From Amoebophrya sp. A120 (taxonomy: Eukaryota; Protista; Dinoflagellata), in assembly GCA_905178155.1 (NCBI GenBank), contig CAJINV010000007.1:3143151-3207150 (forward strand): a stretch of 64,000 bases of DNA, written 5' to 3'. Within the stretch, counting starts at the first letter, position 1. Every line of letters starts with the position of its first letter. Under the pieces are notes generated by a model, which was not told the DNA's origin, made no database searches, and saw only the letters and a list, made by a program, of their open reading frames with translations. The position numbers and the translations under genes are program-made. Below, piece after piece: positions 1 through 30,980 of this stretch.

Positions 1-3000
1 CCGCGGACGAGGACAGCGAGGGGAGTTTGCCGCTCCGCGACGTGTTGCGCATGCTGGAAGCGGTGTTCTGCAAGTCCGGCCCGTTGACGCAGTGGGACAT
101 CCGGGTTTTGCTGGCCCAGATGGAGTCGGAGCTGCGGTCCGACGGCATCATCCGGTCCGCAAAGCTGGTCACGAAGATTGTGCCGCCGCTCCGGCGCGTG
201 TACAACGAGTCGGTTTCGTTGAAACAAAAACAGATCGCAGCGGCGGCGGCGGCGGCACACCAGCAGCAGCAGCAGGTTGTAGACCACACGAACAATGAAG
301 AAGTGGACCAAGTGATCATCACCGCGGATCAAGTGCAGCAGATGGTGGCGTTGCTGCAAGGCCACGAGCTGACCCTGTTGCACGAGCTGATTCAGAAGAA
401 GTGCGAACCTCTGGCGGACTCCGCGCACCCGGAGTTGCTGCAACGACACCGGTTGAAATTCGTCTTGGACCAGCTGAACACCCGGATCTCGGAGCCGGAG
501 AAGTCTTTACTGCTGCAAATCATGCCCATGCGGGTGTTGTTCCGGTCCCCGGAGGAGGACAGCCCGGTCCCCGCGGACAAGAAGAAAAACAACAAGATTT
601 CCTTCGACATGTATCGTAAGGAAAAGTCCCCCCTCCCCATATCGGAAACGTACCCGTCTGAAAATTTGTGATGCGCATTTGGGACCTCAAATCCTGTCTG
701 TCTTGCCAGAAGGCAAGTCCAGAAAGCGCTCCGCATCCTGCAGGCGGTTTGTGATGCTGTTGGGCTTAGAGCATACGCGTTTGCCATGCTAGGCGCCTAC
801 GCCAACACCTCCCGACTGAGGCTTGGCATATGCCTGCAGTCGTCTCTAGCAAGACAGATCTGATTTGTGTACGCAAATCCAGCATCAGAAACTTCGTTTT
901 GATATGGGGAGGGGGGATTTTTCCTTTTGATAACATGTCACCGAAGTCCAAGGCGGACAACACGTTTCTGAACGGGTCCCTGGACAGTCCGATGGCGACC
1001 GCGAAGCCGAACAAGAAGCGGCCGGTCACCTTCATCAACTTCACGGAGTTCCACGACAATCTGGCCTACCTGCGCGCCGCGCGGACCTTCTACTGGCCGG
1101 ACAACCTGGCGCAGGTCCGCCACTCCCTGATCGAGATCGTGCGGTCGTTCAAAGCGCGGATTCCGATCTGGACCTACCGCGCGCAGGTGCTGGGGCCGTT
1201 GATGCAGCAGAAGCTGGTGTGGCTGTCCGCCGCGGAGCTGTTCGTGATCGGCTGCATGACCCCGGTCACCAAGGATGCCGGGCTGGAGTGCGGCTTCACG
1301 GACATTGAGGAGGCTATCAAATGCAAAAATGTCTGGGTCTGGAAGAGTCATGCTGTTTTTGCATGACACAGGATGTCTGTCCTGGAAGCCCTAGCATCAC
1401 AGATTTCGAGAAGCTTCCGCATTGCTTAATCGGCATTACAAATCCCCCACTTTGGTGACAGGAAATGGACACCTTTTGCTGCCTATGCATGAGAGATTTG
1501 TCTGTGTTGTGAAATGCGCATCACAAGCTCACATCCTTCCAGACCCAGACATTTTTACAATCCATAGAGGCGTTCGACATCCTCTTCTGTCTCGTGCAGC
1601 AGTGGCACGACAAGTTATCAAATGTAAAAATGTCTGGGTCTGGAAACTTGTGATGCTGGGTGGCGTCTCATGATGAGGCTACAAATGCTGGCTCAGCATG
1701 ACAAGTTTCTGAGCTCCTAGGTGTTGCCTATTCTGCATGACAAAGTGCGCTTCTGCATCACAGAAAAACGGAGCTCTTGGGTAACGTGCATGACAGATTT
1801 AAAAGTCATGCCAGACAAGCATGACAAACATGAATTCTTCCAGACCCAGACATTTTTACAGTTGATACAAGGATGCGGTCTACCAAAAGGGGGTCACCAT
1901 GGCGCTGGAGCTGGAAGCGGAGCGGAAGCGGAAGGAAATGGAGGAACTGCAGCAGTTTTCCGGTGCGAGCCCAAAAGCGAGTAACGAGGAGGCGAACCGC
2001 AAGGAGAAGTTTGTGCCGCTGGAATTGCGCGACAACCTGGAAGTGGTGGAACGAGCCCTGATGGCGCAGTTTTCGGTAGCGGATTCGGAACGGAAGGGCA
2101 TGATGCGACAGGACGAGGTGGCGGCGTTGCTGTTGGGTGATTGGGACGTGTACATCGAAGATGGCGGGTTGCTAGACAGTGAGAAGGCGGGGTATAATTT
2201 GCTTGTAGTTGTGAACAACCAGTTTTTTTAGCTTTATTTTTCCTCGGTTTCGGTTTTTGTGCACGATCGATGAAGAAAATCGAATCCGAGCTAGGTTTCT
2301 CATCGTGCCAACACTGTTTATGAGTAAATCGCAACCCCTACGTACCCCAGGTTGCTTGCCATGTGCGAGCCGGTGTTGGACGAAGATGGGAAGCAAACTT
2401 CCTACCTGCGCTACGACGAGCCGGTGAAGACCTTTTTGCCGATCTTGTTCGACATCCGGCAGAACCAGGGCTTTCGGGAGGTCCTCCAGCTGGAATCTCC
2501 CTTGGAGGAGTTGATGACGGAGGAGATCATGCAGCTGCGGCAACTCGGCCCGCTTCCGTATGAGAGTGCACAACTCCACCTCGTCCCCCTCATTTGTCAT
2601 GCAAAACCCCAAATCCAACTGTACTGCTGCCCTGTCGCACTCGCTGCATGACAGATTCTGGAAGGCCAAACAGTATGAATTTGCCATGCACAGGCTCCAC
2701 GTGTGCTGGTGATGGTGTTTGTATTGCTGCTCATGCTTTTCAAATGAGGGGGAGGGGAAGCTGTGCACTTTCATATGCCGACCCGAAAATCCACGACGGG
2801 GCGGCGCAGCCGGTTCTCGGTCGGCGCCGGCGGCGGACCGGGCCGGGTGTCCGGTGTGAGCGCTGCGGGCCGACCCTCGGCCGGGGGTCCGGGCCAGAAA
2901 AAGGGGGTGCGGAGAGTCCAGGAAATCACGATATCAAATGCAAAAATGTCTGGGTCTGGAAGATTCTGAGACTTGTCATGCATGTTTTGCATGACCCAGG

Positions 3001-3270
3001 ATGTCTGTAATGCACGACCTAGCATCACAGATTTTTAGAGGGCTTCCTGATGCCTACTTCGCATGACAAACGCACTCCTGACGCACTACTTAGCATCACA
3101 AGTTCCAACCGTCCAGACCCAGACATTTTTACAGTTGATACACGACCCGGGGCGGCAAACTGATCCCGAAGGTGATCGACATCGCGGCGTTGGTGCACGA
3201 AAGCCGGGCGGACAGGAGAAGGAGGATCGGGTCGGACGCCTGGTCGCAGTTGATTCAGAAAATCAAGTGA
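1..3270 (+). CDS. Multi-exon hypothetical protein, 5'-truncated by the window; weak resemblance to an ET/NET-like helical segment near 315-480
   Basis: Exons about <1-611, 938-1314, 1572-1615, 1873-2191, 2351-2558, 2781-2931, 3146-3270. Removing five TIR elements (each plus one TSD) and a GT-AG intron (2192-2350) joins the listed ORFs into one frame (SFDM|SPKS, IEEA|FDIL, LGPLP|TRKS, QEIT|TRGG), ending KIK-TGA. Confidence 0.8.
612..932. mobile_element. Introner/MITE-like element, family B (321 bp), forming a non-canonical intron
   Basis: TIR tatcgtaaggaaaagtcccccctccccatatc / gatatggggaggggggatttttccttttgata. Perfect 5-bp direct repeat ACATG at 607-611 and 933-937. Excision restores the frame. 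Confidence 0.93.
1315..1566. mobile_element. Introner/MITE-like element, family A (252 bp)
   Basis: TIR tatcaaatgcaaaaatgtctgggtctggaag / cttccagacccagacatttttacaatccata. TSD GAGGC at 1310-1314 and 1567-1571. Excision restores the frame (can be read GC-AG). Confidence 0.93.
1616..1867. mobile_element. Introner/MITE-like element, family A (252 bp)
   Basis: TIR tatcaaatgtaaaaatgtctgggtctggaa / ttccagacccagacatttttacagttgata. TSD CAAGT/CAAGG (4 of 5 match). Excision joins WHDK to the AVYQKGVTMALELE frame. Confidence 0.92.
2559..2775. mobile_element. Introner/MITE-like element, family C (217 bp)
   Basis: TIR tatgagagtgcacaac...ccccctcatttg / caaatgagggggag...tgtgcactttcata. TSD TTCCG/TGCCG (synonymous Leu difference). 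Colinear with the element at 52401-52618. Confidence 0.9.
2932..3140. mobile_element. Introner/MITE-like element, family A (209 bp)
   Basis: TIR tatcaaatgcaaaaatgtctgggtctgga / tccagacccagacatttttacagttgata. Perfect TSD CACGA at 2927-2931 and 3141-3145. Excision restores the frame. Confidence 0.93.
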
Positions 3271-4486
3271 AGATATTCATTGCGGAAAAATGGTGTATTT
3301 GCACCAAAAAAGAAGAAAGAAGATTCGCCAGAAGTTCTGTACAATAAAATAAAGATTTACATTTGTTATAGCACTTTGCTCGAGGTTGTGCTATTTGAAA
3401 ACCTATACGTAAAATTGAAAAAACGTTATTGTATCAAATTTCGCTTGCAGAGAAATGGAAATCTGTAAATCAGTTTTCCGCTCCTGCTCCACGAAGCTGT
3501 ATATCGTTGACGCATTGTATGAAACTTCTTTTAAAAAAGTATCAACTTTTGCTCGTATTACTAACTTCCAAGAATTTGTTGAGGCTGTACAAAAATATGA
3601 CACCAGCACACGACCAGCAAGATTGCACTTGCAATGTAGATACAAGTTGACATCGTTGAGAAGAATGTGTCTGCTTCGACGTCTTTGCTAGATGAAATTA
3701 AAGTTTGAGGATTTGTACCGTAGCGTTGACTCTAAGCGAGAATCAATGTCGTGCCGATTCTCGAAATTGTACCTGTCCTTGTCCTTTGCGGCTACCTATA
3801 AACAAACAACTATCTTACACACTCGAATTGCGCTCCTCTATTCAAAAATACCTTAACCTGTACAATTTACTCCAAAAGAACAAACAGACCCTTCTACGCC
3901 GGCGCACCACACCTGAACAGAATCTCTATTGCCCCAATCGAAAATAAGATTGCAGAACGAAAATTCAAAGAATTTAATAGCCATTTGATCTCCGTGTCCG
4001 TGTTTGTCGACAAATCGTGTCAACAGCGTGTTTCTGGGAATTCTGAAGACAGCTCGAAATAACAACCGTGCTGCTATGGATCAAAAGAAGGCCATCCCAA
4101 AAATTTGCAAAAGGCACAGCTTTCTGGATCAAAAACGCAGCTGAATTTTGATTTTTTTTTTGTGCATCACTACAAGCAACCGAATTATTTGATGTTACAA
4201 GGACCCATTTGCTGGATCAATTTTACGCTCTCGCCTGAATTAGACCCAAACAACCCACAGGAGTGAAACAACATTTGAAGCGCCAAGAACAAGTCATGTT
4301 TTACGGAGCGGTTTTATTCAGTTCCAGCATGTCCACCTGGACGTTTTTCAGCCCTCCTGTGTAGAAGCCGCGCTCGTTTTACTTATTTTTCGAGCAGTGG
4401 CGTTACTTGTATTTCACTACCCTCTCCCCCTCGTTCTTTCCCAGGACGACGACTTTCAGCGACTTTTCCCCATCCGAAAAAAAATC

Positions 4487-6719
4487 ATGACTGAACTGGA
4501 CGACGAGCTGGCTGCGATCCGGGCGAAGCGGCAAAAGGCCCAGGAGACCCAGCAGACCGCCATGTTCACCATTTTGCAGAAGAAGCGCGAGATGGAGGGC
4601 GAGGACCCCGCGGTGTTGGAGGCCAACGCCAAAAGGTTCAAGTCAGCGACGGGCTACGGGCAAAACCCGCCCGAGCCGGTAAAAAAGCACCCGACCGCCT
4701 GGCCCGGCGGGGTGCACCCGGCCATCGCGAGCGTACCGCTGGCCGCCGGCCTGCCGCATTTGACGGAGGAGGAGCGGGCGCAGGGCAAGAAGCTCCTATC
4801 AACTGTAAAAATGTCTGGGTCTGGAAGAGTGCCAGACGTGTCATGCAGGTTTTCCATGACCGATGAGGTCTGGTGTGTAGGACAGAGCATGACAGATTCT
4901 GCGAGAGTTCTATCATGCCTATCCTGCATGAGAAACTGCCTCTCGACTAGGTCAGAAGTTGACAGCTTTTGGCAATCATGCAACACAGATCTTTACATAA
5001 TTCAGATTTAGCATGACAAGTTGCATTCTTCCAGACCCAGACATTTTTGCATTTGATAGCTCCCCACCGACGACGACATGATCCACAGCCAGTACGACGC
5101 GCTGGCCAGGTACGGCGAGAAGGCGGTCACCGGGAACGCGATCGTGCCCGTGGTGGACGGGAACGGGACCGCGGTGGAGGAGTGGCTTACCACCGGGTTT
5201 CAGGCGCAACTGCGCAAGATGGAATCCGCGACCAATTTCAAGCACGGCATGAAGATTATCGAGAAGATCTGGATCCACCGGCACCGGCACATCCCCTACA
5301 AGGAACAGATCCAGCTCTACTCCATCCTGTTCACCAAACCCCTGACGCAGGACCTCATCGTTCACATCGACAAGGCGGGCGGCGACCAGGAGAAAAACGA
5401 CCGGTTTCGGGTCATTCCGAAGCGACTCGTGCAAGACCGGGCACGGCCCACCAGCGTGATGAAGATAAGAAACCGACCACCGGACAAGTTTATCCCCAAT
5501 GTGCCGGAGTGGATCGACGTCATGCACCTCATGAAGCCCATTGAGATCGGGTTGACGCAGAATTTGAAAGAAAAAACCACGGCCGACTTGATCAAAGCAC
5601 TCTACGCGGTGGTGAAGGTACTGATAGGGTTGATGATTTTATTGCGTTTTTGCATCGTGTCATGCGAAGAGGCCAGCACAGGCTGGGCTAGTATGTTGCG
5701 AATTCATTCGGTCCTCGCATGCATGATTTAGATAAGTAAAAGTTCTTCCTTGCACAAATTGAATTTCAGGTCCACCTTCTGGATGTGCCGTTTCAAAATC
5801 GAGCGACCTTCGAGCCAACCAGCGGCGAGAAGAACTGCATGCTGAAGCTCCAAGAGATGCTGAAAAGCAAAACCGCGGCAAATGGCGACGAGCTGAAAAC
5901 CCTGAGTGCCAAGGTGATCTGCATGTTGCTGTACAGCAACAGTCTGATCGCGAACCCGAATTTCATCTCAAATGTCGGCGCGTTGCAGAAATTGGCTCTG
6001 GACAAGGGACTGATAAGGTATATAGTACCTCAATGTTACTGCTTGCCTTTCGATCTTCCTATGTTGATCCGTTGTGTTTTTCGTCCCATTGCACATAATT
6101 GCAATTGCTCGTTGCAGAAGCAGCTTCATGTTGTCCGTTTGTTATTTATTTCATACAGTGTTCATTATTTCAATCTGAAACCAACAGAACCTTGTACCAC
6201 GACGTCGTCCGCGGGCAGCAGATTGCAGACATGGAATCTGCGCAGGTGTGCGAGCTGGCCTATGCCGTGGCGAAGTTTAATCAGCTGTACACACAAACGC
6301 TGGCCAGCAAGAACGATCTGTCCGCCGCCGCCGGGCTGGGGATTGCGCACCGGGAACCGGTGGAGGAGCAGGTGTTCAACAAGATCTCCGAGAAGATCCA
6401 GATGAGCAAGGACTCCATCAGTTTGAAGCATTTGGCGGACATTGTGTCGGTGTACGCCCTGTTCGGGCTGAAGGACGAGCAGTTGTTCCACTCCCTCGCG
6501 CCCATTTTCCTGACGGAAAAGGCCAAAGGAAAGCTGAACGACTTCGACTTCCAGCAAACGCTGAAGGCCTACATCAAGTTCAACCTGCCGCTCCGGGAGG
6601 AGGCGCAGGGCTTCCGGAACATCGCGGTCATCGGCAAGGGCGACTTTACCCGGCCCAGCGACAAACCAAAAAAGGAAAAGTTCGCCTACCACAGGCCGGA
6701 GCCGCTGCAGGACAGATGA
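4487..6719 (+). CDS. Hypothetical protein with C-terminal helical repeats (HPR/RAP-associated-like), possibly organellar RNA-binding
   Basis: Exons 4487-4796, 5064-5617, 5770-6017, 6188-6719 (one introner plus two GT-AG introns) give a continuous frame (KKL|PTDDD, VVK|VHLL, LIR|TLYH). The segment LKHLADIVSVYALFGLKDEQLFHSLA resembles helical repeats. Function is tentative. Confidence 0.7.
4797..5058. mobile_element. Introner/MITE-like element, family A (262 bp)
   Basis: TIR tatcaactgtaaaaatgtctgggtctggaaga / tcttccagacccagacatttttgcatttgata. Perfect TSD GCTCC. Same length as, and colinear with, 51206-51467. Confidence 0.94.
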
Positions 6720-12448: not shown

Positions 12449-15055
12449 ATGGAAGAAGGACCCAAAGGAAGTCCCGCAAGTAAGATTGCAAGCGCCTTCG
12501 TCGAAAACACGACCGCCGCTGCTGTGGATGAAACCGCAACTATGCAAGAAAATTTTCTCTCATCATGCGAAGAAGCAGAGCAATCCACGAACAAGCGAAA
12601 CGCCGCAGCTGTTACGACAACAGGCCCGTTCACTGTTACACCCTCCACGAAGATGAACCTCGAACAGGAGCACCAAAATCTCGTGGCCGTGAACATCTAC
12701 ACCCCGTCCGGCCGGCTGTTCACGTCTTGGTATGAGAAGTTGGACAAGACCTTGTCTTCGTCCAAAGCGAAATCTTCCGACTTGTCCGGCATGAGGACGA
12801 AAAGCACACTGAAATCCGGATTGTCGGGCGCGGAGACTACAACAACCTCGAATTTCTTCGACGACACCTCCGACTGCGAAACCGCGTCGACCTGTTCCTC
12901 GGACTCCACGCTGTGGAAAGCCTCGGGAGTAGAGGGTAAAAATCAACGAGGATCTACTACCACTTCATGTGCTTCCTTATCGACCACCTCTTGCAGTCTT
13001 TCTTCCACGTCTGGCGGATCAGACTCGGAGGTCGAAGTGGTGTTGCCAGAGGAGGAAGAAGACGGTAGCCCCGCGTTGCGCACCGAAAGTAGCGTCGAAG
13101 TAGACGAGGAGATTATTGAGGAAGACAATTTGATGTCACAAGACGTGTCGTCTTCGGCGGGCGCTGCTTGTTTATTAGCCCCGGCTCCAACGGGTACAAT
13201 TGAAAAGATCAAGATGTCGAGGCAGCCTGATCCAGGAACGACCGCGCAAAAGGATAACGCAGCTGAAACCGCCCCAACTTCGATCAAGCCGAAGAACTAC
13301 GTGAACCTGCAGAAAAACACGGTGAAGGACCTGTGCCGCCACGTGCGGAACTGCTTGTATGCGAACAAAACGCTGCACTTGGCGGAGCGGAAACACTGCC
13401 TGCAGCAGGCGTTCCCGGAAACGGACGTGATCGGGACGGAGAACCCCACGGAGGAGCACCGAGTCAACAGCTTTTTCTATTCCGCGGTGCAGCACGATAA
13501 TATCCAGGAACAAGAAGAAGAAGACCGCCTTGCTGGTGCACCGGGTGGTGAAGATGATGATGAGCAAGTAGAACCTCCCCCCCTCCGCAATGGCCAGCAG
13601 CAACGAGAAAACCCGCTCCGGGCGGAAGATTTTTCCCTGGATTTGGAGTGCGTCTGCTTGTTGAAATTGGACAATGTTTTTCTGACAAAGGCGGCGAAGT
13701 GCTGTCAGCTGATTGACGAATCTCCGAATGATGCGCAGGGAGGAGCTGGAATGGCAACGAAGAAGAAGAAAACCGCGCGCCGGGAAAATAAGAAGCGAAA
13801 GTTCTTCCTGAAATTCTGGCTGACGGACTGCGATCCCTTTGACTACTTGAACTATGAGGAGGAAAGGCGAAGAGCGGAGCAACAAACTGCTTTTTTTCTT
13901 CATGGTCCGGAAACGGCGGAGTACGGGGTCGAGCAGGTGTCCTCCACCGGCCCGAAATTTCTCAACTTCGCCGTCAGCTTGTACGCGGACAAGACTAGTA
14001 GTACTGGTCGCGCCGACATCGAGTCGTGCGGTGGTCGTTGTACAAATGCCGAAACTTCTGTCCGGGCTGGTAGTTGTGGTACTACTAGTACCACTGTCGC
14101 TGCTGTAACGTCCTCAACTTCTGATGAAGCAGAAGAACCTCCTTCTTCGGAACAGTACTACACCCCGTCGACTGCAGGACCTGTTTCGGACGGGGAGGAT
14201 CCAGGATTTTACGATGAAGAAGAAGAGGACGAGTGGGACGTGATTCCCAGTAATTTCGAGCATCTGGTGTGGACCTGGTACCTGATGTGCGACCAGACGG
14301 AGTTCGAACTGGGGAAAGAGAAGAATCGGCTCGTTTTCAAACTGCTCGACTCCTTCGCGGAGTTGGAGTTTGAAAAGGACGCAGATTTCGAGCTCTGCGC
14401 AAAGCTGCTGAACCTCGGGAAGAAGTTGTCGAACTCCAGAAACGTCGGGTTTGCGGAAGCCTTGCGACAGGTGGAGGAGTGTGTGTGGGCTGGACGTCAG
14501 AAGCAGAACCAGCAGGATGAGAGCAACAGCAAGAACAGGCTGGCAAGCGAGGTATTTTTTTCGTCCACTTGTCAGCACGGGAGGACTACAACATCACAGA
14601 AAACTAGCGGACCAGTGCCGAATATTGCGGAAAAATTGGAGGAAATAGATGCGGAATTCAGGGAGAATTTCGCCATGATGGGGAGCTGGGAGAAGTTGAG
14701 ACTGCTCCCCTGGACCGGGTTTGAGAGCAAAACCCTGGAAGAATTGGAGAAAATGAAATTGGTGGAGTGTTTGGAAAAAAGAGACGGCGAGAATCATAGT
14801 ACCATAAAATCGGAGTGCTCTTTTCACGACAGTGAAGATGAATTTGAAGGAAGTTTTTCCGAAGGAGACTTCTCGGATGAAGAAGTTTGCTGCCCCGAAA
14901 AAGAAAAGGGAGCAGAAGGTAGGAGTGGAGAGCTTCAATCGAAGGTGCAAGGCGGAACTGCGGGTACGAAACAGTCCGCGAAAGCAGACGATGGCACAAG
15001 GAAAAAATGTTACCCATTGGAACTGAATTTCTCCATTTGCGTTCCCATGGAGTAA
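12449..15055 (+). CDS. Hypothetical 868-aa Ser/Thr/Glu-rich protein with short globular islands
   Basis: Long uninterrupted ORF in which GC3-rich islands alternate with low-complexity linkers. No family recognised. Confidence 0.75.
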   Translation: MEEGPKGSPASKIASAFVENTTAAAVDETATMQENFLSSCEEAEQSTNKRNAAAVTTTGPFTVTPSTKMNLEQEHQNLVAVNIYTPSGRLFTSWYEKLDKTLSSSKAKSSDLSGMRTKSTLKSGLSGAETTTTSNFFDDTSDCETASTCSSDSTLWKASGVEGKNQRGSTTTSCASLSTTSCSLSSTSGGSDSEVEVVLPEEEEDGSPALRTESSVEVDEEIIEEDNLMSQDVSSSAGAACLLAPAPTGTIEKIKMSRQPDPGTTAQKDNAAETAPTSIKPKNYVNLQKNTVKDLCRHVRNCLYANKTLHLAERKHCLQQAFPETDVIGTENPTEEHRVNSFFYSAVQHDNIQEQEEEDRLAGAPGGEDDDEQVEPPPLRNGQQQRENPLRAEDFSLDLECVCLLKLDNVFLTKAAKCCQLIDESPNDAQGGAGMATKKKKTARRENKKRKFFLKFWLTDCDPFDYLNYEEERRRAEQQTAFFLHGPETAEYGVEQVSSTGPKFLNFAVSLYADKTSSTGRADIESCGGRCTNAETSVRAGSCGTTSTTVAAVTSSTSDEAEEPPSSEQYYTPSTAGPVSDGEDPGFYDEEEEDEWDVIPSNFEHLVWTWYLMCDQTEFELGKEKNRLVFKLLDSFAELEFEKDADFELCAKLLNLGKKLSNSRNVGFAEALRQVEECVWAGRQKQNQQDESNSKNRLASEVFFSSTCQHGRTTTSQKTSGPVPNIAEKLEEIDAEFRENFAMMGSWEKLRLLPWTGFESKTLEELEKMKLVECLEKRDGENHSTIKSECSFHDSEDEFEGSFSEGDFSDEEVCCPEKEKGAEGRSGELQSKVQGGTAGTKQSAKADDGTRKKCYPLELNFSICVPME

Positions 15056-16379
15056 AGATAACAGGAATGTTTGAAGTGAAAAAGGATAAAAAGCGGCGCG
15101 TTTACATGCGTCGACCAATCACCAGAGAATTTATCAGGTGAAACGCATTGCAACATCATAGATGAGCATCAGTAGTAGACTGCATGAAATTCAGAGCAAC
15201 ACACAAGCAGTCATTACATTTATCAATCCATCCCCATAAATTTACCCCTGAAGAATGGGAAGAGTGCAGCAGAAGTTTATTTCTTTGGACAGCTAGAAGT
15301 AGCGTTGTCTTCGCAAGATTCTTTCAGAAAGGAAAACTAACACAATGACAAAGATTGCACTGATGCAGAAGATGATTCTTTGCACAAAACTCCGAAACAG
15401 AGGAAAATATTTCATGCGGAATTTTTTTCGCACAACTGCACAGGTGCATTGTCTTATCTACTCTTGGCCGGGTCTACGGTAGTTTCTTGACTCAGTTGCA
15501 TAAAGATTTTTTTGGAGAGAGGTAAAGATATCTTGCTGTAGCATAGACACGTCAGCATCAACAGAGTAAAGCAGTACTTCTGATCCGCCCAAGGAACAAG
15601 AACATATTTCTGCAACCCATTCATTTACGCAATGTTATCTTTCCCTCCGTTGAGAAATAAAATCCAAAATTTTGTGCGGTGTAGCTTGCAACGCATGTTT
15701 GCGACAAAAATTAGTACGCCTTGTTCACGAGGATGATGTTTTGTCGATTTTCTTTCGGTACTGTTTTCAACGTGATTTTTCCCCAAATACTCGGTTGTTT
15801 TGTCGTGAAAAGGTCATGATTTCAATGGACCTTACAATCTGGTGCGCCTCCGTCCTCGTGCGATAAGAACAGTGCCTCCGTCCAATAGTTTTTTGTCGGT
15901 TCGTGTTGTTAAAAAGATTCGTTCCGGAAGATGAACAATTGTCGGTTCTTCCCGTGCCAGTTGTCGGTCGCGTCGTTGTCTGTATAATTATCGTGCATCA
16001 ACACGTAGTTCTTCACTACCGGTCGTACATTCATTTGTGAAGACGTTCTGTTTCTCCTCAGCATCGTGGTACAGCGCTACTCTCTTCGTGCGGTTGTTCA
16101 CTGTCCTTCTCGTGAGACCAATTCAAACGCTTTCTGTAGCTTTTGCGTTTGACTAAATGGAGTCCCAAAATACGGCAATTTGCTCCTTCTTTGTTTCATG
16201 CAGTTTTACATTCCCAACCCCTGCGCGACCTCGGACGAATTTACTTTGATTCACAACATATGTACCCCCAGCGAGCCATTTTCGTTAAACTTAAATTGCA
16301 GCTATGTGTCTTTACTGTGCTAATGACACAAGCACAACTATGCCTCTAGACATGATCTTCTCACCCCCCTAAGGACCAA

Positions 16380-19300
16380 ATGTCATCTTCTGCTCCTGCA
16401 ACGCAGGTGCCGCAGCGGTCGCCAACTTTCGGGGCGGAAGGCGAGCAAGCCGTCGCTTTTGAGCCGTCACTCAGCAAGCAGGGCAGCGTACTAGAAGCTG
16501 CTGGTTCTCACCCGAAGACGGCGAAGCTCTTCCAGTCCGCCGTCGCACACGTGATCCACCGTCGTAGATTGGACGATGAGCGGAAGATTGCGGAACAGTG
16601 CTTCAAGCGGCCCACCGCCGTCCTCGAGCACCAGCGTGCGACCCAAAACAAGCGAAACCACCCCACCGCGGGGATCGGGAATGTTGCAGGAGCTGCTTCA
16701 TCTGCTCCTGGTGCACCTCCAAGTGGCACCACTACTACACCAGGAGCCGGAGTAGAGAGTACCAGACAGGGTACGAAGAACACAATCAGCATTCCCAGCA
16801 CCGCGCCCGCGGCGGCCGGTTCTAGCGCGGAAAGAACGGGGGTTTATGCAGTGGACAAGGACGAGAAGGACTACAACATCCTCCGTGTGCCGGGGAGTGT
16901 GGGTTCTATTAACGGGACAAGTGGACGAGAAGACAACTTGGAAGACTACGAGGATTTCCCCGTTTCTGGCACGAGCGACTTCGAAGCCACGCGGGCCTCC
17001 GTGGACCACATCCTGGACGCACGGGAGGCAAACTGGAACCACTTGCAACAATCCATGCTGCACCGCCACCACGGGGCCCGGTCGTACCTGAAGGCCAAGA
17101 CCGCCCGGCTGTTTTCCCGGCGGAAGAAGAAGAAGCCCGGAGTCAGCGATGGGGGGCCGGGGAGTTCCTCCGACGGCGGACGAGAGCTCCACCGTCATCT
17201 CCATAAGGAACCATCAGAGAACAAATTTCACAAGGGCTCGCGATTTGCGAAGGCGCTGAAGAAGACGCCGTGCCCCAATCGGGTCGGCGTGGAGGTGCAC
17301 GCCGTGCAGCAGGAGCAGGTCGCGACCGTGGCGGCGGCGTTGCGGCAAGGCATCCTGGAGGTGATGGGCGGCGCGACTTCTGACGCAGCTGGTGCAGCTG
17401 GTGTAGAGATGCAAGAACCGTCTCCTGACGACGCTGACGATGTGGAGTTCAAAGACGCCGAGGCGGAGCTCTTGCAGCACGTGGGGAACACCCCGGGGGA
17501 CCAGATGCAGCTGGAGGCGTTGGTTCGGGACCGCACTCAGTCAATCTCCAGGTCCGACGCGGGAAAGGGCTCGGATACCTCCAATAAATCTCCAGAGGGG
17601 GAGGTGCACATGAAAAATGCTCCACCTGCTCCTGCTCCACCACCAGGGGGGACGACCACCAGCAATGTTCAACAACATCATCTTAGAGCGCCTAATAGTA
17701 CAACTACCCTGCCTAGTTCGGCTTCCCGAGGAGATGAAACGCAGACCACACACACCGTAAAGTTTCGCATTCGGAGCTACCAGCCGGCGAAGTTTGCGAA
17801 AGTGCAGAAAGCCTTCCACATCCCCGAGGACGAGTACAAAGACTCGTTCCTGCACGGCAAGGAGTTCTATTGCATTTCCACGGAGATGGCCGCGGGGCGG
17901 TCTCCTGCGTTCTTCCTGCTCACGACCGACCAGCGGTTCATCCTGAAGAGTTGCACGGCGCGGGAGGAGAAGCTGATGCTCGAGATTCTGCCCGATTACG
18001 CCGAGCACGTGGAACAAAGCTGTGGCGGGAGGACAACAGGAGTGGCCGGACCTCCAGGCTTGGAGGCCGGAAACAGTTACGACCGACGAGAGCCGACTAC
18101 AGGGGCGAACAAGCGGAGCCAGCAACTACGCGGTGCCACTAACACCGCTCCTGCGGAAACCACGAAAGAGAAAACCGCGGACCCGCAGCTCCAGCTGCCT
18201 TCGCAAAACTCTTTCCACACCGCCGCCAGTGTTGTCGGGCAAACATCGACGGAACATCATCAAACAAACAGGACCGATTTGTCAAACATGAGTGCTGCGA
18301 CGCCCGAAATAACTGATAGAAGTACAACAGGCGCGGCAGGTCGCGGCAGCAGAGGAGACGAATCACTGTCCCTAGGTTCCATCGTTTCGAACAACGTCTC
18401 AGATGGGGACGAATTCGGGCAGACTTCTACCTCTGCGGGAGCCGGGGGTGGTCCAGGAGCTACTTCCAAAAGGGGGCCTGGATTGGCTCTTCCGGTCCGG
18501 TCGCCCGGAACGACGTTCACGACTCCCGCAACGAGTTTGCTGCCCCAGTACTTCGGGTTGTACAAAATCGAGTTCATCGACGAGAACCCATCTAGTACTT
18601 CTTCCGGGAAGAAATTCGAAAAGGAGCACTTCACGTTCGTCTGCATGGCGAACATTTTCTGCGGCATGTACAAGATCAACTGCAAGTACGACCTGAAAGG
18701 ATCCACGGTCGGCAGAAAGGCGCGAAAAGGGGGTCATGCTCCAGGGCCTGCTCGTGCACCACCACCTTCAGGAGGGCAACACCAGCAAGATGGTGTAGGT
18801 ATAACAGTAGATCCTAGTACCAGCGGGGCGATTACTTCTAGTGCTTTTCCTCACGCGCAGCACCAGCACGGCGCAACAAGCGAGACCCATGAGCATGAGG
18901 AGGAGCAGCTGGTTTTGAAGGATCTGGATTGGATCGACGACCAAGCTTCCTCGACAAAATTGCGGCAGTTGAAAACCGTCCGGAACGCGAAGAAGTGCCT
19001 GCAAATCGTGGATTCGCTGGAGCGAGACGTCGCTTTTCTGCAGCGCAACAACTTGCTGGATTACTCCCTCCTCGTTGGGTTGCACTTCAAGCCGAAGGCC
19101 GCTTTGAACGCCAAGGGGACGGCGGGGAGTATGAGCAACATTCTGTACGGGCGGGAGGACTATGTGCCTTTCGGCGTGCAGGTGGTGGAGAATGACAAAC
19201 TGCTGTCTTACATCGGCATCGTCGACATCTTGACGACCTACGGCCTGCGGAAGCGGGCGGAGACCTGCCTCTTTTGCGGGACCTGCAGAAACATCAGCTG

Positions 19301-19721
19301 CCAACCCCCGGCCACGTACGGAAACCGCTTTTTAGAGTTTGCCCGGCACGCGGTGTTTCAAGTCGATCAGGAGGTGGTGGAGCCAGATGTGAATAGCAAA
19401 GCCAACCTGACAAAGGTAAAAGATGAAGCGGACGACAGCAATAGTAGAAATTGTACAACGCCGTTAGCTCAAGGACATAATCCTGCTAAACATCTCGCCG
19501 CTTCTAAAAGTAGAGAAGGCTCGTCTCCCGATAAACTTACAGCTGCAACGGCAGTCGAGAGAGGGGATAGTTCACAGGGGGCGATGACAGGTGAGCCGGC
19601 TACTAATAGTACTTCCCTGCAGCTGGTGTCACACGAACAGGACTCCGTAGGTAGGGACACGAAAGTTACATCGCGTAGCACGCAACTTGTTTCAATACAG
19701 GAAAGCGATCTTCGTGTATGA
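16380..19721 (+). CDS. PIP5K: Phosphatidylinositol-phosphate kinase (PIP5K family)
   Basis: Motifs GRSPAFFLLTTDQRFILKS, LLPQYFGLY, MANIF, KYDLKGS, LKDLD, DVAFLQRNNLLDYSLLVG, IGIVDILTTY and ISCQPPATYGNRF, separated by long inserts. Confidence 0.93.
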   Translation: MSSSAPATQVPQRSPTFGAEGEQAVAFEPSLSKQGSVLEAAGSHPKTAKLFQSAVAHVIHRRRLDDERKIAEQCFKRPTAVLEHQRATQNKRNHPTAGIGNVAGAASSAPGAPPSGTTTTPGAGVESTRQGTKNTISIPSTAPAAAGSSAERTGVYAVDKDEKDYNILRVPGSVGSINGTSGREDNLEDYEDFPVSGTSDFEATRASVDHILDAREANWNHLQQSMLHRHHGARSYLKAKTARLFSRRKKKKPGVSDGGPGSSSDGGRELHRHLHKEPSENKFHKGSRFAKALKKTPCPNRVGVEVHAVQQEQVATVAAALRQGILEVMGGATSDAAGAAGVEMQEPSPDDADDVEFKDAEAELLQHVGNTPGDQMQLEALVRDRTQSISRSDAGKGSDTSNKSPEGEVHMKNAPPAPAPPPGGTTTSNVQQHHLRAPNSTTTLPSSASRGDETQTTHTVKFRIRSYQPAKFAKVQKAFHIPEDEYKDSFLHGKEFYCISTEMAAGRSPAFFLLTTDQRFILKSCTAREEKLMLEILPDYAEHVEQSCGGRTTGVAGPPGLEAGNSYDRREPTTGANKRSQQLRGATNTAPAETTKEKTADPQLQLPSQNSFHTAASVVGQTSTEHHQTNRTDLSNMSAATPEITDRSTTGAAGRGSRGDESLSLGSIVSNNVSDGDEFGQTSTSAGAGGGPGATSKRGPGLALPVRSPGTTFTTPATSLLPQYFGLYKIEFIDENPSSTSSGKKFEKEHFTFVCMANIFCGMYKINCKYDLKGSTVGRKARKGGHAPGPARAPPPSGGQHQQDGVGITVDPSTSGAITSSAFPHAQHQHGATSETHEHEEEQLVLKDLDWIDDQASSTKLRQLKTVRNAKKCLQIVDSLERDVAFLQRNNLLDYSLLVGLHFKPKAALNAKGTAGSMSNILYGREDYVPFGVQVVENDKLLSYIGIVDILTTYGLRKRAETCLFCGTCRNISCQPPATYGNRFLEFARHAVFQVDQEVVEPDVNSKANLTKVKDEADDSNSRNCTTPLAQGHNPAKHLAASKSREGSSPDKLTAATAVERGDSSQGAMTGEPATNSTSLQLVSHEQDSVGRDTKVTSRSTQLVSIQESDLRV

Positions 19722-20525
19722 TCTTCGAGCTATCGTTTGGCGGTGAGAAAGGAGTTCACAAGAAAACAGCGTTAGATGACATTTAACATGAGCTTGACTC
19801 ACTACTGATTTTGATACCTACAACACTGGGGCGGACCCGTCCATTTTGATGTTTAGAAAGAAACGCAAAAAGACAAGAGCCCAAAGACGAATTTGCTGCA
19901 TTGCGATATTAAATGTGTTGATTTCAGCACATCATCCGGCCTTCCTGGTTGAGTGTTCAAAAACTGTATTGCTTGGTTCCCTCTGCATTTGTGAGTTTCT
20001 TTTACAACGTTCTTCTCGCAACCATCGTGTAGTGGACCACTGCAAGGAAATACAAAAAAAACATCAGTTTCAGTTCCTCTTTCAAAAAAATTAAAGTTTA
20101 GAATTCGTCTTCTCAATATGGTTGTGTCTGCGATGCGTTCCTTTGCATTCCAATCTTGATAATATGTTGTGTTGGGCCTGAGATTGAGATTTCCATCTGT
20201 ACAACATGTTGCATTTTTCGCCCCCCCCTCGAGAATAGAAGGTGGCTCTAACTGCTGTAAGTATGATCATCCTCGTCCTCACCTCTTTGCGATCGAGAGG
20301 AAACCAGCACGTAGCAACGGATGATGCCCGCGGATGATAAGTGATACTTGGTTCTTGTAGTCGCACCGCCGTGCAGGCGCATCGTTTGTGGTGTACCAAA
20401 GTGGATTTCTTTCCGCGCGGTTGCTTCATCTCCCGGTCGTATCATACAAGCTGCACCGATCCCTCGACGACCGTGCGGATTTGGTAAGCAGCAACCGTTC
20501 ATCGTTTCTCGTAGCGTCAGGCCGG

Positions 20526-23500
20526 ATGACAATGACGGTGGATTATCAGTATAGCGTCAACAAGAACTACCCGACGTACAGCCCCACGCCGCCACCACAG
20601 AACACCAGCAGTAGCCATCAAATGAACTACAACAACCCTGGAGCCGCTGCAGCTGTAGCGACGAGTAGCAGCATGTACAACGACATCGAAGGCGGGCAGG
20701 CCGGTGGGTACTATGGGAACAGCAGTTCGTCGATGGGCCAGAGCATGAATCATCCGGGCTACTACCCCAACAACGGGTTCGCGGACACGAACGGCTTGAA
20801 CAGTCAGAACAACAATTTTTACCATCCCAAGAGGAAACTGTCCTTGATCGAGCAACTGGCGATGAACGGGACCGTGTCGCCCTTGGTTCCCCTACTCGGG
20901 GTCTGCTTCACACTCTGTGTCGGGGTACAGATGTTTTCCGACAACGTGGGGCTGAAGGCCACACTGTGGGCGCTGTTCGTCTCCATCGTGGGGATGTGCT
21001 TTTCCTTCTGGCTCCTAGTGTGGATGTACCGCTTTGACGAGGGCACGGAGGCCATGCAGGTGATCTCCGACGCGATCTCAGAGGGCGCGGAGGGCTACTT
21101 CGCCATGCAGTACAAAACGATAAGAAACGTGACGCTGTTGTTCTCGGTCTTACTCTTCCTGCTGTTTTTGGGGAGGGAAGGAGGTAATGTAGCAAGTTGG
21201 GTCGTTTATATGCTGTATCATTTTTATTTTCTAACGCGGGGATCATGCAACAAGACGAACCACCAGCATGATAGAAGTGAGGAGATGACGGATCTCGGTG
21301 GTGGTAGACCGAGCTCTTGTTTTTTGGCTCTCTCGACCACGTCGTTGTTTTGCGGAACCACATGATACAGGTCTCAATAAGTTTCTTCAAACCAACACAT
21401 TCATTCTTTCTACCACAGGCACGGGCCCTGTAGGCCCATGGGTGATGGCTTTGGTTACGTCCCTCACCTTCCTCGTCGGCGCCGGGTGTTCCGCGCTTTC
21501 CGGATACGCGGGTATGTGGGTTTCTGTCCGGGCCAACATCCGGGTTGCCTCCGCCGCGAGACGCTGTTACAACGATGCTTTACAGCTTTGCTTTCGCGGT
21601 GGCGGCTTTACCGCGGTGATTAACGTCAGCTTGGTTGTCTTTGGGATCTGTGTCATGATGCTCTTCTTCCAGTTTTTCATACCGGAACTGGCGTTCGCGC
21701 AGATGCCGCTCTTGCTGGTAAGTACTAGGAGGGTTTAGCAGTGGTCGTGTTTTTGTCCAGGGTGGGCATGCAAGTGATTGTCGCAGCCTAAAAATAATGT
21801 AATTGCGAAAATGCCTCACAAGTTATTGCATTTTTTGCACAGTTCATGAAATAGAAATTGTGACCCATCAAGATCACAACTTCAGGTCGGCTACGGCTTT
21901 GGCTCGTCCCTCGTGGCCATGTTCTCGCAGCTCGGCGGCGGTATTTACACAAAGGGCGCCGACGTCGGTGCGGACTTGGTCGGGAAGGTAGAAGCCGGGA
22001 TTCCGGAGGATGACCCGCGGAACCCGGCCGTCATCGCCGACTTGGTGGGCGACAATGTTGGTGATTGCGCGGGCCAGTGTGCGGACACGTTTGAGTCAAT
22101 TGCCGCCGAGATAATGGCGGCCATGATTCTGGGTGGCGCCCTGGCCGAGGAAGCGAAGCTGCCGGCCAATTTTGGCGTGGGCTTTGTGGTGTTTCCGCTC
22201 GCAGTGCATTCCATGGACATCGTGATCTCTTCCGTTGGTGTGATGCTGGTCCGGACAAGAAGAGGACTGCCCGATCACGGCGCCGCACCCGAGGACGCGC
22301 TGGCGATCATGAAAAGGTTGGCCGATGTCTTCGGTTTTGATGCAAAACAAAAGGTCGTGTGAATGTGATTTGATGCTAAATGTAAATCTTGCATGGCGCT
22401 ATGGACACTTACACGATGAGCCTAGAGGAGGAGCTTCAAAAATAAGCACGAGCCAAAACGATGAAAAAAAATCCCCGTCATCAAATGATATTAAAGAGCC
22501 TACCTCGTCTCGCTGCTGCTCGGTGTCGGCGGCTTTTTTCTCTTGTGCCGACTACTCCTCTACTCCCCGGTCGCGCCGGACGCCTGGAAATGGTTTTGCG
22601 CGTGCGGGGTTGTCGGACTGGTCGCGGCGTACCTGTTCGTCATAATCACCCAGTACTACACGGACTACGAATTCTCCAAAGTTCGCGGCATCGCGGAGGC
22701 GTCGCTTTCCGGTCCAGCGACCAACGTCATCGCCGGAATGGCGGTCGGATTGGAATCAACGGGGGCGGCGACGCTGGTCATCGCCGGATCATTGGTATGA
22801 GGAAGAACTATTTTTTAGATCGTGTTTTAAGCTGAGTTCCTGTTCCGTCGTGACAGGAGATGAAGCGGCTTTTTCTGTGCTGCTTTTGGGAATGCGAAAC
22901 GGAAGAAACAATGGGAAAATACTTAAAAATCTTCTAGTGCCTCTCCTACAACTTCGGTATGAAATCGGGCATCACAAGTACCAATGGGAATATCGCCGGC
23001 CTGTTTGGCACTGCCGTGGCAACGATGGGCATGCTTTCCACCGCGGTGTTCGTGCTCGCGATGTCCTCCTTCGGCCCGATTGCCGACAACGCGGGCGGGA
23101 TCGTTGAGATGTCGCAGCAGCCGGAGAACGTGCGCGCCATCACCGACAGGCTAGACGCGGTGGGCAACGTGACGAAGGCCAACACCAAGGGGTATTCGGT
23201 CGGGTCCGCGGCTCTGGCCTGCTTTCTCCTTTTTTCCGCGTTCCTCGACGAGGTGTCACTGTACTCTGGGCACAAGTTTGAGAAGGTTGACCTCGCCATA
23301 CCGGAGGTCTTCGTGGGCGGGCTGATCGGGTCGATGTGTGTGTTCCTTTTCGCCTCCTACGCGATGACCGCGGTCGGGAAGGCGGCGCAGCGCGTGGTGC
23401 AGGAGGTCCGGCGGCAGTTCCGGGAAATCCCCGGGATTTTAGAGTTCAGGCAGAAGCCGGACTACCGCACGTGCGTCAACATCGTCAGTAACACCGCCCT

Positions 23501-23951
23501 GCGGGAGATGGTGAAGCCGGCTTTGCTCGCGGTGCTCGCCCCCATTCTCGTCGGCTTCGTCTTCCGCCACGTGGGCCAGCAGCGCGGGCAGCCACTGCTA
23601 GGCGCGGAGGCGGTCGCCAGCTTCATGATGTTCTCGACCGCAACCGGGATTTTGATGGCGCTGTTCCTGAACAACGCGGGCGGGGCGTGGGACAATGCGA
23701 AAAAGTACGTGGAAACCGGGGCGCACGGTGGGAAGAACAGCGACGCGCACAAGGCTGCAGTATGCGGCGATACCGTCGGGGACCCGTGCAAGGACACCGC
23801 GGGCCCGTCGGTACACGTGTTTATCAAACTCGTGTCCACCGTGACGATGGTGGTGACGCCCTTGTTCATCGACAAGAAGTCATTCGACGTCGCAGCCGGG
23901 GCGGGTGCGGCACCAATCATACCAGGGGGAGCTGGGGCACCGCCGAGATAG
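20526..23951 (+). CDS. Membrane H+-translocating inorganic pyrophosphatase, K+-independent type (AVP2/VP2-like)
   Basis: Exons 20526-21183, 21419-21717, 21886-22316, 22497-22794, 22938-23951, all GT-AG. Motifs [60 protein letters not shown] (Lys signature of K+ independence), GGAWDNAKK and [14 protein letters not shown]. Confidence 0.96.
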
Positions 23952-27805: not shown

Positions 27806-29663
27806 ATGGGAATCCTGTCACAAATTCCACCGTTGCAGGACCATCTGGAAGATGCGTTTTCTGCGCTTACGATACAGCAGCAGCCGAAGCAATCCGTGGC
27901 CGCAGCGCGAAGAGTTGGGTTATACAACGGGAATGTAACCACGAGCTTTGTTGTTGAGAACCACTTACAACGCAATTCGGCCGCCACGCATAATAATCCT
28001 TCATCCTTCTACGCAGCAACGTTTCATCCTCCTGCCGCACCAAGTGACACAGGAGGAGATGGAACAACCCTGCAGTTTCCCTTCTCATCCTCCTCCTCCC
28101 ACCAGCGACAGTTCCTCAACTTCCCCACCCACGGCTCCTTTCACACGCGGCGCACGTTCTTCACGCCGGAAGACGCGCTGCGAGAGGGCGAAAGCTGCCC
28201 CACCTGTGCGTGCGAGGGGTGCCAGACGGCCTTGGGGAGCAACGTGGGGTCGCAGGCGATTGAGTGCCCGAACGTGCCCCACCACAGCAAGGATCCGGTG
28301 GTGTCGAAAGCGTTATGGTACAGCCGCCTGGTGTTCATCTTTTTTGCGGGAATATCCTTGGGCGGCTACCTCGCCTTCTGGATTCGGGGACGGCAGGTCA
28401 GGAAGCGGGCGCAGTTGATGGACGACGACGGGGAAATCAAGCGGGTGGACATGTGGGTTGACGACGACGACGAGTCGTCGGACGAGGAGGGCATGAGCGC
28501 GGGCGATTTCTTCATGAATCTGTTCGGCGCCCCGGTGAAGCTGGCGAACGCGATGATCGAGCAGGCCACCGGGGTCAGGTTGTTGCCGGATTCCGTTTAA
28601 GCATTGCAAATATGTCTGTGCTCTTTGGAAGCATGCAAGGCTTGTCATGTTCGGTTAGCATGACGCTCAAGTGTCGTGTCTCTGCACACCACCCAAACGA
28701 ACTACTTTTCTGTCATGCAGGATCTACTTACGCAGTTTGTTGCCAGTCAGAGCAACACTCAATGTCAACACCTAGCACCTCGAAGACTTCTTGTCATGCT
28801 TCGCTGTTAATTGAGGTATCAATCCTCGTGATTCTCGTATCAGCAGGACAAGTTTGTTCCGGACCAAGGCGTATTTGCAATCTCCATACCGTCACGGAGA
28901 AGGTGCGGTTTTCGTTCCGCGATCGGGATATCCTTGAGCGGACCGACTTGACCGATATGGAGAAGGCGTTTTTGATAATGAAAGGCGACTACGAGGAGCA
29001 CATGGAGCTCAGCGAGCGGGAAAAAGCCATTTTGAAAGACAGGTATTTATAATAGGCCGCATATAGAAATTTCATTTGCTCAAAACCGTCCGCAATGCAA
29101 AAAGAAAAACTTAACAAGAAAACGTACTGTTCGAATAAAAATCATCAATCAGGTCCTTGACGGACATGGAGAAGGCGTTTCAGATGACCCGCGAGATGGA
29201 GGAGGTCAACCTCCCGGGCCACATGTCGGACATGCAGAAGGCCTTCCGCGAGCTGCAGGTGGACATGGGACTGCGCCCGGCGGACGACGGGGGCGTGATG
29301 GGGGCGCTGCTCGGCGAGGACGAACTGAGCAAGAAGCTGAAGGGCAAATCCGACATGGAGAAGGCGCTGGCGCTCCAGCTGAACGCGATGGGGGTGGAGG
29401 AGGAAGACCTGACCAGTGACATGCAGAAGGCCTTCAACCACGTTGCTGCCAAGTACGGGCTGGCGCCGGGCACGACCGAGGATGACCACGCGTTCGATGA
29501 GGACGGGAACCGGAAGAAAACGAAGAAGGAGGGCGGCGTGTTCGGTATGTTCGAGGAGGTTTTTGGGAAGTCCGACATGGAGCAGGCCTACGAGGAGGTC
29601 GCGGCCAAGGTGGACAAGAAGAAGAAAAAGAAGAAGGGGCTGTTTGGGGGCCTGTTCGGGTGA
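27806..29663 (+). CDS. Single-pass membrane protein with a Cys cluster and repeated (S/T)DM(E/Q)KA(F/L) motifs
   Basis: Exons about 27806-28597, 28894-29042, 29153-29663. Junctions PDSV|TEKV (introner) and KDR|SLTDM (GT-AG). TM segment LVFIFFAGISLGGYLAFWI. The start is uncertain. Confidence 0.72.
28598..28888. mobile_element. Degenerate introner element (291 bp, family E, distantly A-like)
   Basis: Imperfect TIR taagcattgcaaatatgtct / aggcgtatttgcaatctccata. TSD CCGTT/CCGTC (synonymous Val). Internal tgtcatgc motifs. Excision removes the TAA stop and restores the frame. Confidence 0.78.
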
Positions 29664-30714: not shown

Positions 30715-30980
30715 CGCAAGAACGAATCCCCTACTTTTACGAGCAAGCGACATCGATACTTTGTTTTTTTTTGTGACCAGCGCAGACAGTGCTCGGTATG
30801 TTAATTTGAATTTCTTTGTGTGCTACCTGTGGCGTCTTCTGTAATATCTCTTGTGACTTAGTATACAAATCAAAAACTTTCACGACCTCTCAGCTACAGC
30901 TGGTGGACCACCAAAACTTGGGGCATTGAGCGGAACAGGTGGTATTTGCGAGGCAAGAACCAGTCCACCGTGGCAACGAC

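Follow-up and report, generated by a model that had tools for sequence, protein, structure and literature searches.

As far as the consulted text of the Amoebophrya A120 genome paper goes (PMC7789003), that genome holds tens of thousands of introners in about 1,950 seemingly separate families, and neither a transposase nor U1 small nuclear RNA (snRNA) was found in it. Their inverted repeats start with TAT, followed by seven variable bases and an A-tract; direct repeats are of 3-5 nt, the mean length is 240 nt and no splice dinucleotides are fixed. The subject here is one such element, at positions 1616-1867 of a 64-kb window (the whole stretch of DNA analysed, 64,000 nucleotides of Amoebophrya sp. 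A120 contig CAJINV010000007.1), together with a 12-bp motif repeated inside it and inside its relatives. Within the portions seen of PMC7789003 and PMC12130899, A120 introners are described with the same TAT inverted repeats, 5-bp direct repeats, non-canonical introns of about 240 nt and co-oriented genes, and the A120 family lengths 252/260, 149, 305, 321, 208, 278 and 106 match the present families (21 of 58 A120 rows and the family 38 row of PMC12130899). The text searched in both accounts treats the families as separate and does not mention an internal repeated motif or its spacing.

Transposons of the IS3EU/GingerRoot type, according to the text searched of PMC10045372 and PMC6839031, have the same TA...TA termini, terminal inverted repeats (TIRs) and no target preference beyond G+C. 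However, their target-site duplication (TSD) is usually 6 bp and GingerRoot TIRs are 100-150 bp long, against 5 bp and about 30 bp in the present elements, and a phased internal motif is not mentioned in that text (PMC10045372, PMC6839031). The elements were not assigned to IS3EU/GingerRoot because their TSD is 5 bp throughout; their TA...TA ends are a pointer to integrase-type relatives of that group.

The En/Spm motif is 12 bp long and is bound as tail-to-tail pairs, and TSDs are 8 bp in Ac and 3 bp in CACTA elements. TNPA of En/Spm and the Ac transposase bind subterminal repeats (PMC2613891, PMC3260210), and Lemi1 proteins cooperatively bind those of Emigrant, a miniature inverted-repeat transposable element (MITE) (PMC1636448). 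In the parts of these sources consulted, En/Spm, Ac/Ds (AAACGG) and Emigrant/Lemi1 likewise carry multiple short internal sites in both orientations, which are cooperatively bound and needed in cis by non-autonomous copies, but their motifs are family-specific and go with one TIR, and CACTA motifs differ between subfamilies (PMC2613891, PMC3260210). The present elements, in contrast, share one constant motif across at least 11 families of changing TIR body, filling the whole element and phased at three helical turns. With TAT ends and a 5-bp TSD they lack CACTA or hAT termini with 3-bp or 8-bp TSDs, and the likeness is a functional analogy only.

Introners are already published, and arrays of internal binding sites are standard knowledge for En/Spm, Ac/Ds and Emigrant, whereas neither the motif nor its phasing was found in the papers searched and both appear new. 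These comprised full-text literature searches and the available text of PMC7789003, PMC12130899, PMC11282704 and PMC9860276 with supplement texts, but not figures S19-S25 of PMC7789003, two supplementary files and any consensus libraries belonging to PMC12130899, Repbase, theses or Roy et al. 2023 (Curr Biol); PMC12166617 does not mention Amoebophrya. We consider that the motif is probably a double-stranded DNA site to which a single transposition protein, acting in trans and serving all families, binds. On the questions of introner mobility and splicing, one conserved, phased 12-bp site would collapse the families into one system. The motif could serve as sequence bait for pulling down the factor, and as a signature for the autonomous element and for old decayed introners among ordinary introns. 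A family is usually defined by its TIR; a design with fixed internal sites and diversifying TIRs turns this rule round.

The element at 1616-1867 and the shared motif

The element is 92% identical to its subfamily consensus and 97% identical to a copy in a related locus (L071). Its features are as follows.

1616-1867, no strand assigned: TIR introner of family A (A252 subfamily), 252 bp, TAT...ATA ends, inverted ends matching at 29/30
1611-1615, + strand: left 5-bp target duplication, CAAGT
1868-1872, + strand: right target duplication, CAAGG, which the spliced contig retains
1645-1656, - strand: 12-bp motif facing the left end, its head 41 bp from that end
1696-1707, + strand: 12-bp motif copy
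1735-1746, + strand: 12-bp motif copy
1755-1766, + strand: 12-bp motif copy
1788-1799, + strand: 12-bp motif copy, the first of a 31-bp pair
1804-1811, - strand: degenerate inverted half-site read from sequence (match at 1805), with a 7-nt spacer before the 1819 copy
1819-1830, + strand: 12-bp motif copy, its head 49 bp from the right end

The first-pass annotation had placed forward GCATSACA copies at 1696, 1735, 1755, 1788 and 1819 and a reverse copy at 1649, and these coordinates are exact. It had also read the gaps of 39, 20, 33 and 31 bp as roughly helical spacing. The gaps are correct, but this pattern is the commonest in the A252 subfamily (exact in 11 of 46 members) and, being inherited within it, counts as one observation and not as separate evidence of phasing, which is shown only by tests across families.

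Related loci were found with a 20-nt family-A TIR pattern (151 stretches, 145 loci, all in assembly JACKZZ01), each locus thus being chosen for containing one element; merged, they form 130 sequences of 590,901 bp that have only elements in common with the window. With a TSD match of at least 4/5 as a calling criterion, 383 elements were called, 372 in the loci and 11 in the window, the 5-bp TSD being perfect in 313 and matching at 4/5 in 70. Eleven TIR families took up 352 elements; the other 31 were left unplaced, a few of them probably false calls. DNA contig depth over the elements is thousands of times the flank depth. Being short, TIR-bounded, TSD-flanked, non-coding and of high copy number (372 in 590,901 bp of selected loci), they have the features of MITEs, and TSD composition in the family sample shows no target sequence preference beyond G+C. 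All 11 end consensuses start with TAT; an A-tract comes next in most and is reduced to CACAA, CTCAA or GTCAG in C, F and G. They are non-coding transposons, short and with inverted repeats, that splicing removes from host transcripts.

De novo 7-mer counts ranked the motif first, the full form being GCAT(G/C/T)ACA(A/G)(A/G)TT (12 bp, or GCAT(G/C/T)ACARRTT), and the top 7-mer, CATGACA, occurs in at least 40% of the members of all 11 families. GCATSACA was counted 38 times in the window, against 4.43 +/- 2.14 in 100 dinucleotide shuffles (largest 12), and 33 of the 38 matches lie inside 12 elements (10.7 per kb). The contigs used to measure enrichment had no part in choosing the motif. The strict motif is present in 319 of the 352 family-assigned element interiors, at 7.7-23.3 per kb, which is 22-71-fold above dinucleotide shuffles in each of the 11 families. 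That the motif is common to all families is thereby confirmed for 11 of the 11 tested, with a composition-matched background beaten. A 12-bp matrix was trained on the sample elements, so matrix counts inside elements are not independent, whereas strict counts in the loci are. A CpG-decay artefact was ruled out, because the enrichment is over dinucleotide shuffles and the conservation holds outside CpG.

The families had been called unrelated, and this did not hold: they share TAT-N7-A-tract ends and a 5-bp TSD, and there is motif-masked interior homology between several of them. With motifs and ends masked, D-I/K, B-G, B-C, C-F and H-I align above shuffles (z = 10.8 for D-I, 6.1 for B-G, 5.7 for B-C, 5.6 for C-F and 5.1 for H-I). 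The elements at 2559-2775 and 52401-52618 are of one family; that at 28598-28888 belongs to the 1616-1867 subfamily as a decayed copy in reverse (66.5%). A stricter clustering was used, a looser one having chained families E, I, D, G and K, and 10 homology groups were obtained among 20 cluster consensuses (32 singletons left out). Judged from sequence comparison, the families form one superfamily.

Spacing, conservation and a proposed transposition protein

Spacing was tested on 14 of the 20 cluster consensuses, six near-duplicates being dropped. A same-strand pair 31-32 bp apart was present in 12 of the 14, against 1.5 by random placement; the best 2-bp spacing window anywhere averages 4.5 consensuses by chance, and 12 was reached in 0 of 5000 trials, a figure that includes the look-elsewhere effect. 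Same-strand distances of 130 bp or less, 72 in number, keep a phase of 10.25-10.5 bp (cosine 0.42, 0 of 2000 trials), which persists without the 30-33 bp pairs (cosine 0.29, P = 0.002). When each homology group was given one representative (8 combinations), the 31-32 bp pair was found in 8 of 10 (P <= 0.006), and the phase without those pairs gave P = 0-0.036. The proposed phasing at about 10-11 bp is borne out by these cross-family tests, with a period of 10.25-10.5 bp, a dominant 31-32 bp pair and a spacing distribution that is not flat. Outward-facing sites are in phase with the element end, in clusters at 40-41, 48-51, 60-63, 71-73 and 79-84 bp (R = 0.49, P = 0.0012). The motif head has a weak inverted copy 8 bp upstream (z = 8.6; 6 or more of 8 positions match in 30%) and an opposed copy 24 bp downstream (z = 5.8), together an arrangement of tandem 12-7-12 dyads of 31 bp. 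Between clusters, the spacers of 19 pair modules share only 34% identity, against 27% when shuffled, indicating that spacer length outlasts spacer sequence.

Motif cores are 2-3 times more conserved than other interior DNA. Over 12 clusters, core divergence from the consensus was 0.065 at A/T and 0.092 at non-CpG G/C positions, against 0.171 and 0.207 in other interior columns. Most positions of the GCATSACA core are near-invariant, and the A/T tail diverges by 0.136-0.205 against 0.065-0.092 for the core. In trees, the core/other substitution ratio was 0.19-0.48 on internal and 0.44-0.69 on terminal branches, and lower internally in 7 of 7 clusters, the pattern expected of selection at amplification. 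Since terminal branches mix post-insertion decay with unsampled transposition, selection at the level of the transposon and of the host is not separated by this comparison.

These measurements bear on whether the motif needs a reader at all. All families could descend from one ancestor of internally duplicated modules and simply retain a motif without present function. The common ends and the masked homology that link several families would suit this, as would 31-33 bp spacers that show no extra length constraint within families. However, cores diverge 2-3 times slower than context-matched neighbours, spacers that are nearly unrelated between clusters keep their lengths, and the number, order and orientation of sites differ between families while the phase is kept. 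Retention without function is largely contradicted by the present data, and we hold it to be very unlikely. The phased copies might instead be a DNA-bending or nucleoprotein-positioning signal, with AATT tails on one face, that is read by shape. The best period, 10.25-10.5 bp, would fit, and introners in general relate to nucleosome linkers in the consulted text of PMC9860276. The GCATSACA core is, however, far better conserved than the A/T tail; with its near-invariant positions this argues for base-specific reading, and a signal read by shape seems quite improbable.

Strand was examined where that of the gene was confidently assigned, in 233 elements (83 ambiguous ones were dropped). Relative to the host gene, family A elements are divided 54:54 and motif copies 466:524. 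A strand-specific RNA-binding site was ruled out by this orientation of elements both ways in genes, and a strand-specific RNA-binding mark for removal does not fit for the same reason. The first-pass annotation had proposed that one trans-acting factor, either a transposase or a protein marking the element for removal, binds the motif. One motif in 11 of 11 families supports this proposal in part: of the two candidates a DNA-binding transposition protein fits, whereas the second fails in so far as the mark is a strand-specific one on RNA.

If one transposition protein binds the motif, its molecules would sit three turns apart on one face of the helix and bind cooperatively. The weak inverted half-site 8 bp upstream would complete a 12-7-12 dyad of 31 bp; a dimer would fit this dyad, which would also account for the spacing. 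The array would help to bend an element of 110-320 bp and so bring its two ends together. Cleavage would be signalled by the invariant TAT end, and the family-specific remainder of the TIR could then drift. As for the enzyme, the prediction is a DDE transposase of the integrase type (IS3EU/GingerRoot-like) or a DNA-binding protein accessory to it. A120 family 38 shares the 5-bp TSD and TA/TA termini with the present elements, and in the row consulted it is an 808-bp TIR element annotated "Ginger; 5-bp TSD, TA/TA termini" with Copia/Gypsy homology (PMC12130899). By analogy it may be considered the best lead to the enzyme.

Several observations weigh against a transposition protein as the reader. 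No transposase or integrase Pfam match was found in 37 window and 195 locus open reading frames (ORFs) of at least 200 aa (232 in total, a small part of the genome), nor was such a frame seen in two long TIR-bounded elements examined by eye. Farhat et al. report putative transposases only in A25 and none in A120, and argue against transposase-mediated mobility, in the portions of PMC7789003 consulted. The 39-bp gap within 1616-1867 is off phase, inward-facing sites are not phased at 10-11 bp (R <= 0.28) and total element lengths show no clean 10.5-bp period. Within families, length varies as often in the 30-33 bp spacers as elsewhere (P = 0.094 for 21 vs 40 intervals; 0.16 vs 0.17 background). 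The spacing tests are not on fully independent lineages, because the families share ancestry. Cores are conserved on terminal branches too (0.038, against 0.048 for the TIR and 0.070 for other columns), as host-level selection would give, and motif columns were called on the consensus, which somewhat favours conserved columns.

A six-frame search for an integrase signature gave one unconvincing match only, and an autonomous partner element was not found in the window and the related contigs. Long TIR pairs tried as candidates for it turned out to be nested, to arise from neighbours paired by chance, or to belong to elements into which non-coding DNA had been inserted. Two elements of about 1 kb (L016 505-1608 and L068 11014-11985) are TIR-bounded with perfect TSDs and have a normal element start followed by unrelated non-coding filler; the second interrupts a gene resembling that for the largest subunit of RNA polymerase II. 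At L013 2625-6080, a C5 cytosine DNA methylase is split over two ORFs and adjoins a 1,100-aa ORF without a Pfam match. The TIR pattern of the elements was absent from the viral contigs searched.

Splicing, folding and the motif in ordinary introns

The contigs used as RNA evidence come from runs presumed to be RNA, in two samples of one study; they likewise skip GT-AG introns, and none is on record as RNA. These RNA-like contigs skip exactly the element plus 5 nt at 36273 (214), 41053 (326) and 45444 (273), and join 606 to 933 and 4790 to 5058, so that the elements at 612 and 4797 are skipped directly. The loss of 1315-1566, 1616-1867, 2559-2775 and 2932-3140 was derived by length arithmetic, 43 and 355 letters being left between contig pieces; by the same arithmetic 1616-1867 is skipped in contig X3 record 9, with the right duplication retained. 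A GT-AG cut is impossible for 1616-1867 and possible in only 9 of 159 gene-oriented elements. In the RNA-like contigs the elements are removed despite their non-canonical borders, as in introners of the Amoebophrya A120 type.

Splicing would be a task apart from transposition, probably carried out by the TIR hairpin. The sequence 1606-1877 forms a strong hairpin (z = -8.5) in which the TIRs pair and a single stem contains the copies at 1649 and 1696. Such a fold is what would be expected if the motif copies were stem builders, forward and reverse copies pairing in the pre-mRNA to extend the TIR hairpin that brings the exons together. In 10 of 11 families pairing is also slightly more frequent in the cores than in the rest of the interior, and strand-neutral insertion is compatible with hairpins. 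However, pairing requires complementarity and not one fixed sequence across 11 families, core-to-core pairing is 0.12-0.13 in H and D, and the 10.4-bp phase is the period of B-DNA. In families H and J, every copy points the same way in 7 of 8 sampled elements, and mutual pairing cannot therefore be the general reason for the motif. We regard a role as stem builder as highly improbable.

Raw RNA run X9 matched element ends only and is uninformative for this locus. At window positions 4976-5058, about 120 X9 reads join the right end of a family-A-like element to other sequence; these reads are from one unspliced, transcribed copy of such an element in that sample. Rfam gave no matches at the gathering threshold in the window.

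Outside the elements, the motif is rare in exons, as had been claimed (0 in 11,903 bp of RNA-supported exon in the window). It had also been described as rare in ordinary introns, which proved wrong. The strict motif has 2 copies in the window's 15 RNA-supported GT-AG introns, and matches number 7 against 1.7 expected in these 15 and 21 against 5.1 in 33 predicted ones (those of 40 without a TIR remnant), about 4-fold above chance. Intergenic DNA shows no enrichment (10 against 8.7 expected). In the 33 predicted introns, 4 of 5 same-strand pairs lie 31-33 bp apart, and 20 introns have no match. Outside called elements, 429 matches were counted in 558,574 bp, of which 309 are near TIR remnants, 19 at contig edges and 101 elsewhere. 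Motif-bearing GT-AG introns in three loci (L025, L052 and L021) resemble decayed family-E elements, and some canonical introns appear to be old introners in which the GT donor is formed by the final G of the TSD and the TAT end.

This persistence in introns without a TIR remnant and not in intergenic DNA, together with the 31-33 bp pairs there, speaks for a host DNA-binding protein that recognises the phased array on the gene and thereby flags the element either for silencing or for removal that is co-transcriptional and independent of splice sites, so that motif-less copies would break genes. The stronger conservation of cores than of TIRs on terminal branches, the rarity of elements that allow a GT-AG cut and the failure to find U1 snRNA in either strain, in the text consulted of PMC7789003, point the same way. 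Against it, conservation is strongest on the internal, amplification branches, and over half of the predicted introns (the 20 of 33 noted above) lack a match. Several of the motif-bearing introns are recognisable decayed family-E elements, and decay could explain the excess equally well; neutral survival of some of the 4-5 copies per old element could, by estimate, give a 4-fold excess. Phase relative to the DNA end also suits a transpososome better than a spliceosome. A host mark of this kind is unlikely, though not negligible. In a particular form, judged distinctly unlikely, a host or domesticated transposon protein would read the phased 12-bp array on DNA and license removal whatever the border dinucleotides, providing an orientation-independent intron mark, kept by old introners turned GT-AG, in an organism seemingly without U1 snRNA.

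Other elements and genes of the window

The window was scanned for inverted ends with flanking direct repeats, and 11 elements of 209-321 bp were called; a twelfth, at 28598-28888, escaped the scan because of its decay and was picked out by eye. The elements start with TA(T) and end with (A)TA, or a one-letter variant, within a 5-bp target duplication. Together the 12 make up 3,082 bp, and in 12 of 12 cases an open frame remains after deletion of the element and one duplication. No strand is assigned to the entries below, which add to 1616-1867.

612-932: introner of family B, 321 bp, TSD ACATG, 6 matrix hits, skipped in X3 and X4 contigs
1315-1566: introner of family A, 252 bp, TSD GAGGC, 5 matrix hits
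2559-2775: introner of family C, 217 bp, TSD TTCCG/TGCCG, 4 matrix hits, removal fits X4 record 12 by length
2932-3140: introner of family A, internally deleted, 209 bp, TSD CACGA, 5 matrix hits
4797-5058: introner of family A, 262 bp, TSD GCTCC, 5 matrix hits, skipped in X3 and X4 contigs
28598-28888: decayed reverse copy of the A252 subfamily, TSD CCGTT/CCGTC, 5 matrix hits, frame restored on removal, outside the coverage of the RNA-like contigs
36273-36481: introner of family D, 209 bp, inside the MFS transporter gene, TSD TCCTC, 4 matrix hits, contig joints skip 214 = 209+5
41053-41373: introner of family B, 321 bp, TSD GTGTA/GTGTG, 5 matrix hits, contig joints skip 326 = 321+5
45444-45711: introner of family A in reverse, 268 bp, TSD TTCGC, 6 matrix hits, contig joints skip 273 = 268+5
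51206-51467: introner of family A, 262 bp, TSD CCGGT, 5 matrix hits
52401-52618: introner of family C, 218 bp, TSD CAAGG, 4 matrix hits

Several copies had been claimed for each of five of these. With the matrix this is so, at 4-6 copies each, but by strict matching there are 2 each in 612-932, 2559-2775, 28598-28888 and 36273-36481 and 1 in 52401-52618.

Host genes with Pfam matches at 16356-38965, all on the + strand, are PIP5K (16356-19718), an H+-pyrophosphatase (20361-23948), a cap guanine-N2 methyltransferase (30930-34577) and the MFS transporter (36310-37956). In the window, the excess of the motif in ordinary GT-AG introns refers to those at 5618-5769, 43377-43529, 43717-43903, 44433-44565, 45084-45278, 47689-47880 and 53882-54061, and also at 22969.

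Locus L056 contains a perfect 2,156-bp inverted duplication that includes a family-A end (3279-5434 and 14921-17076), either a recent duplication or an assembly artefact. A second short common stretch, resembling TGTAGTGCTGTTT, occurs in the interiors of several family consensuses (H, C, F and B) and may be a remnant of common descent or a second site. Length modes within families are ten apart (252/262 in A, 311/321 in B), and families C and F arrange their sites in the same way, with a displacement of about 10 bp at either end.

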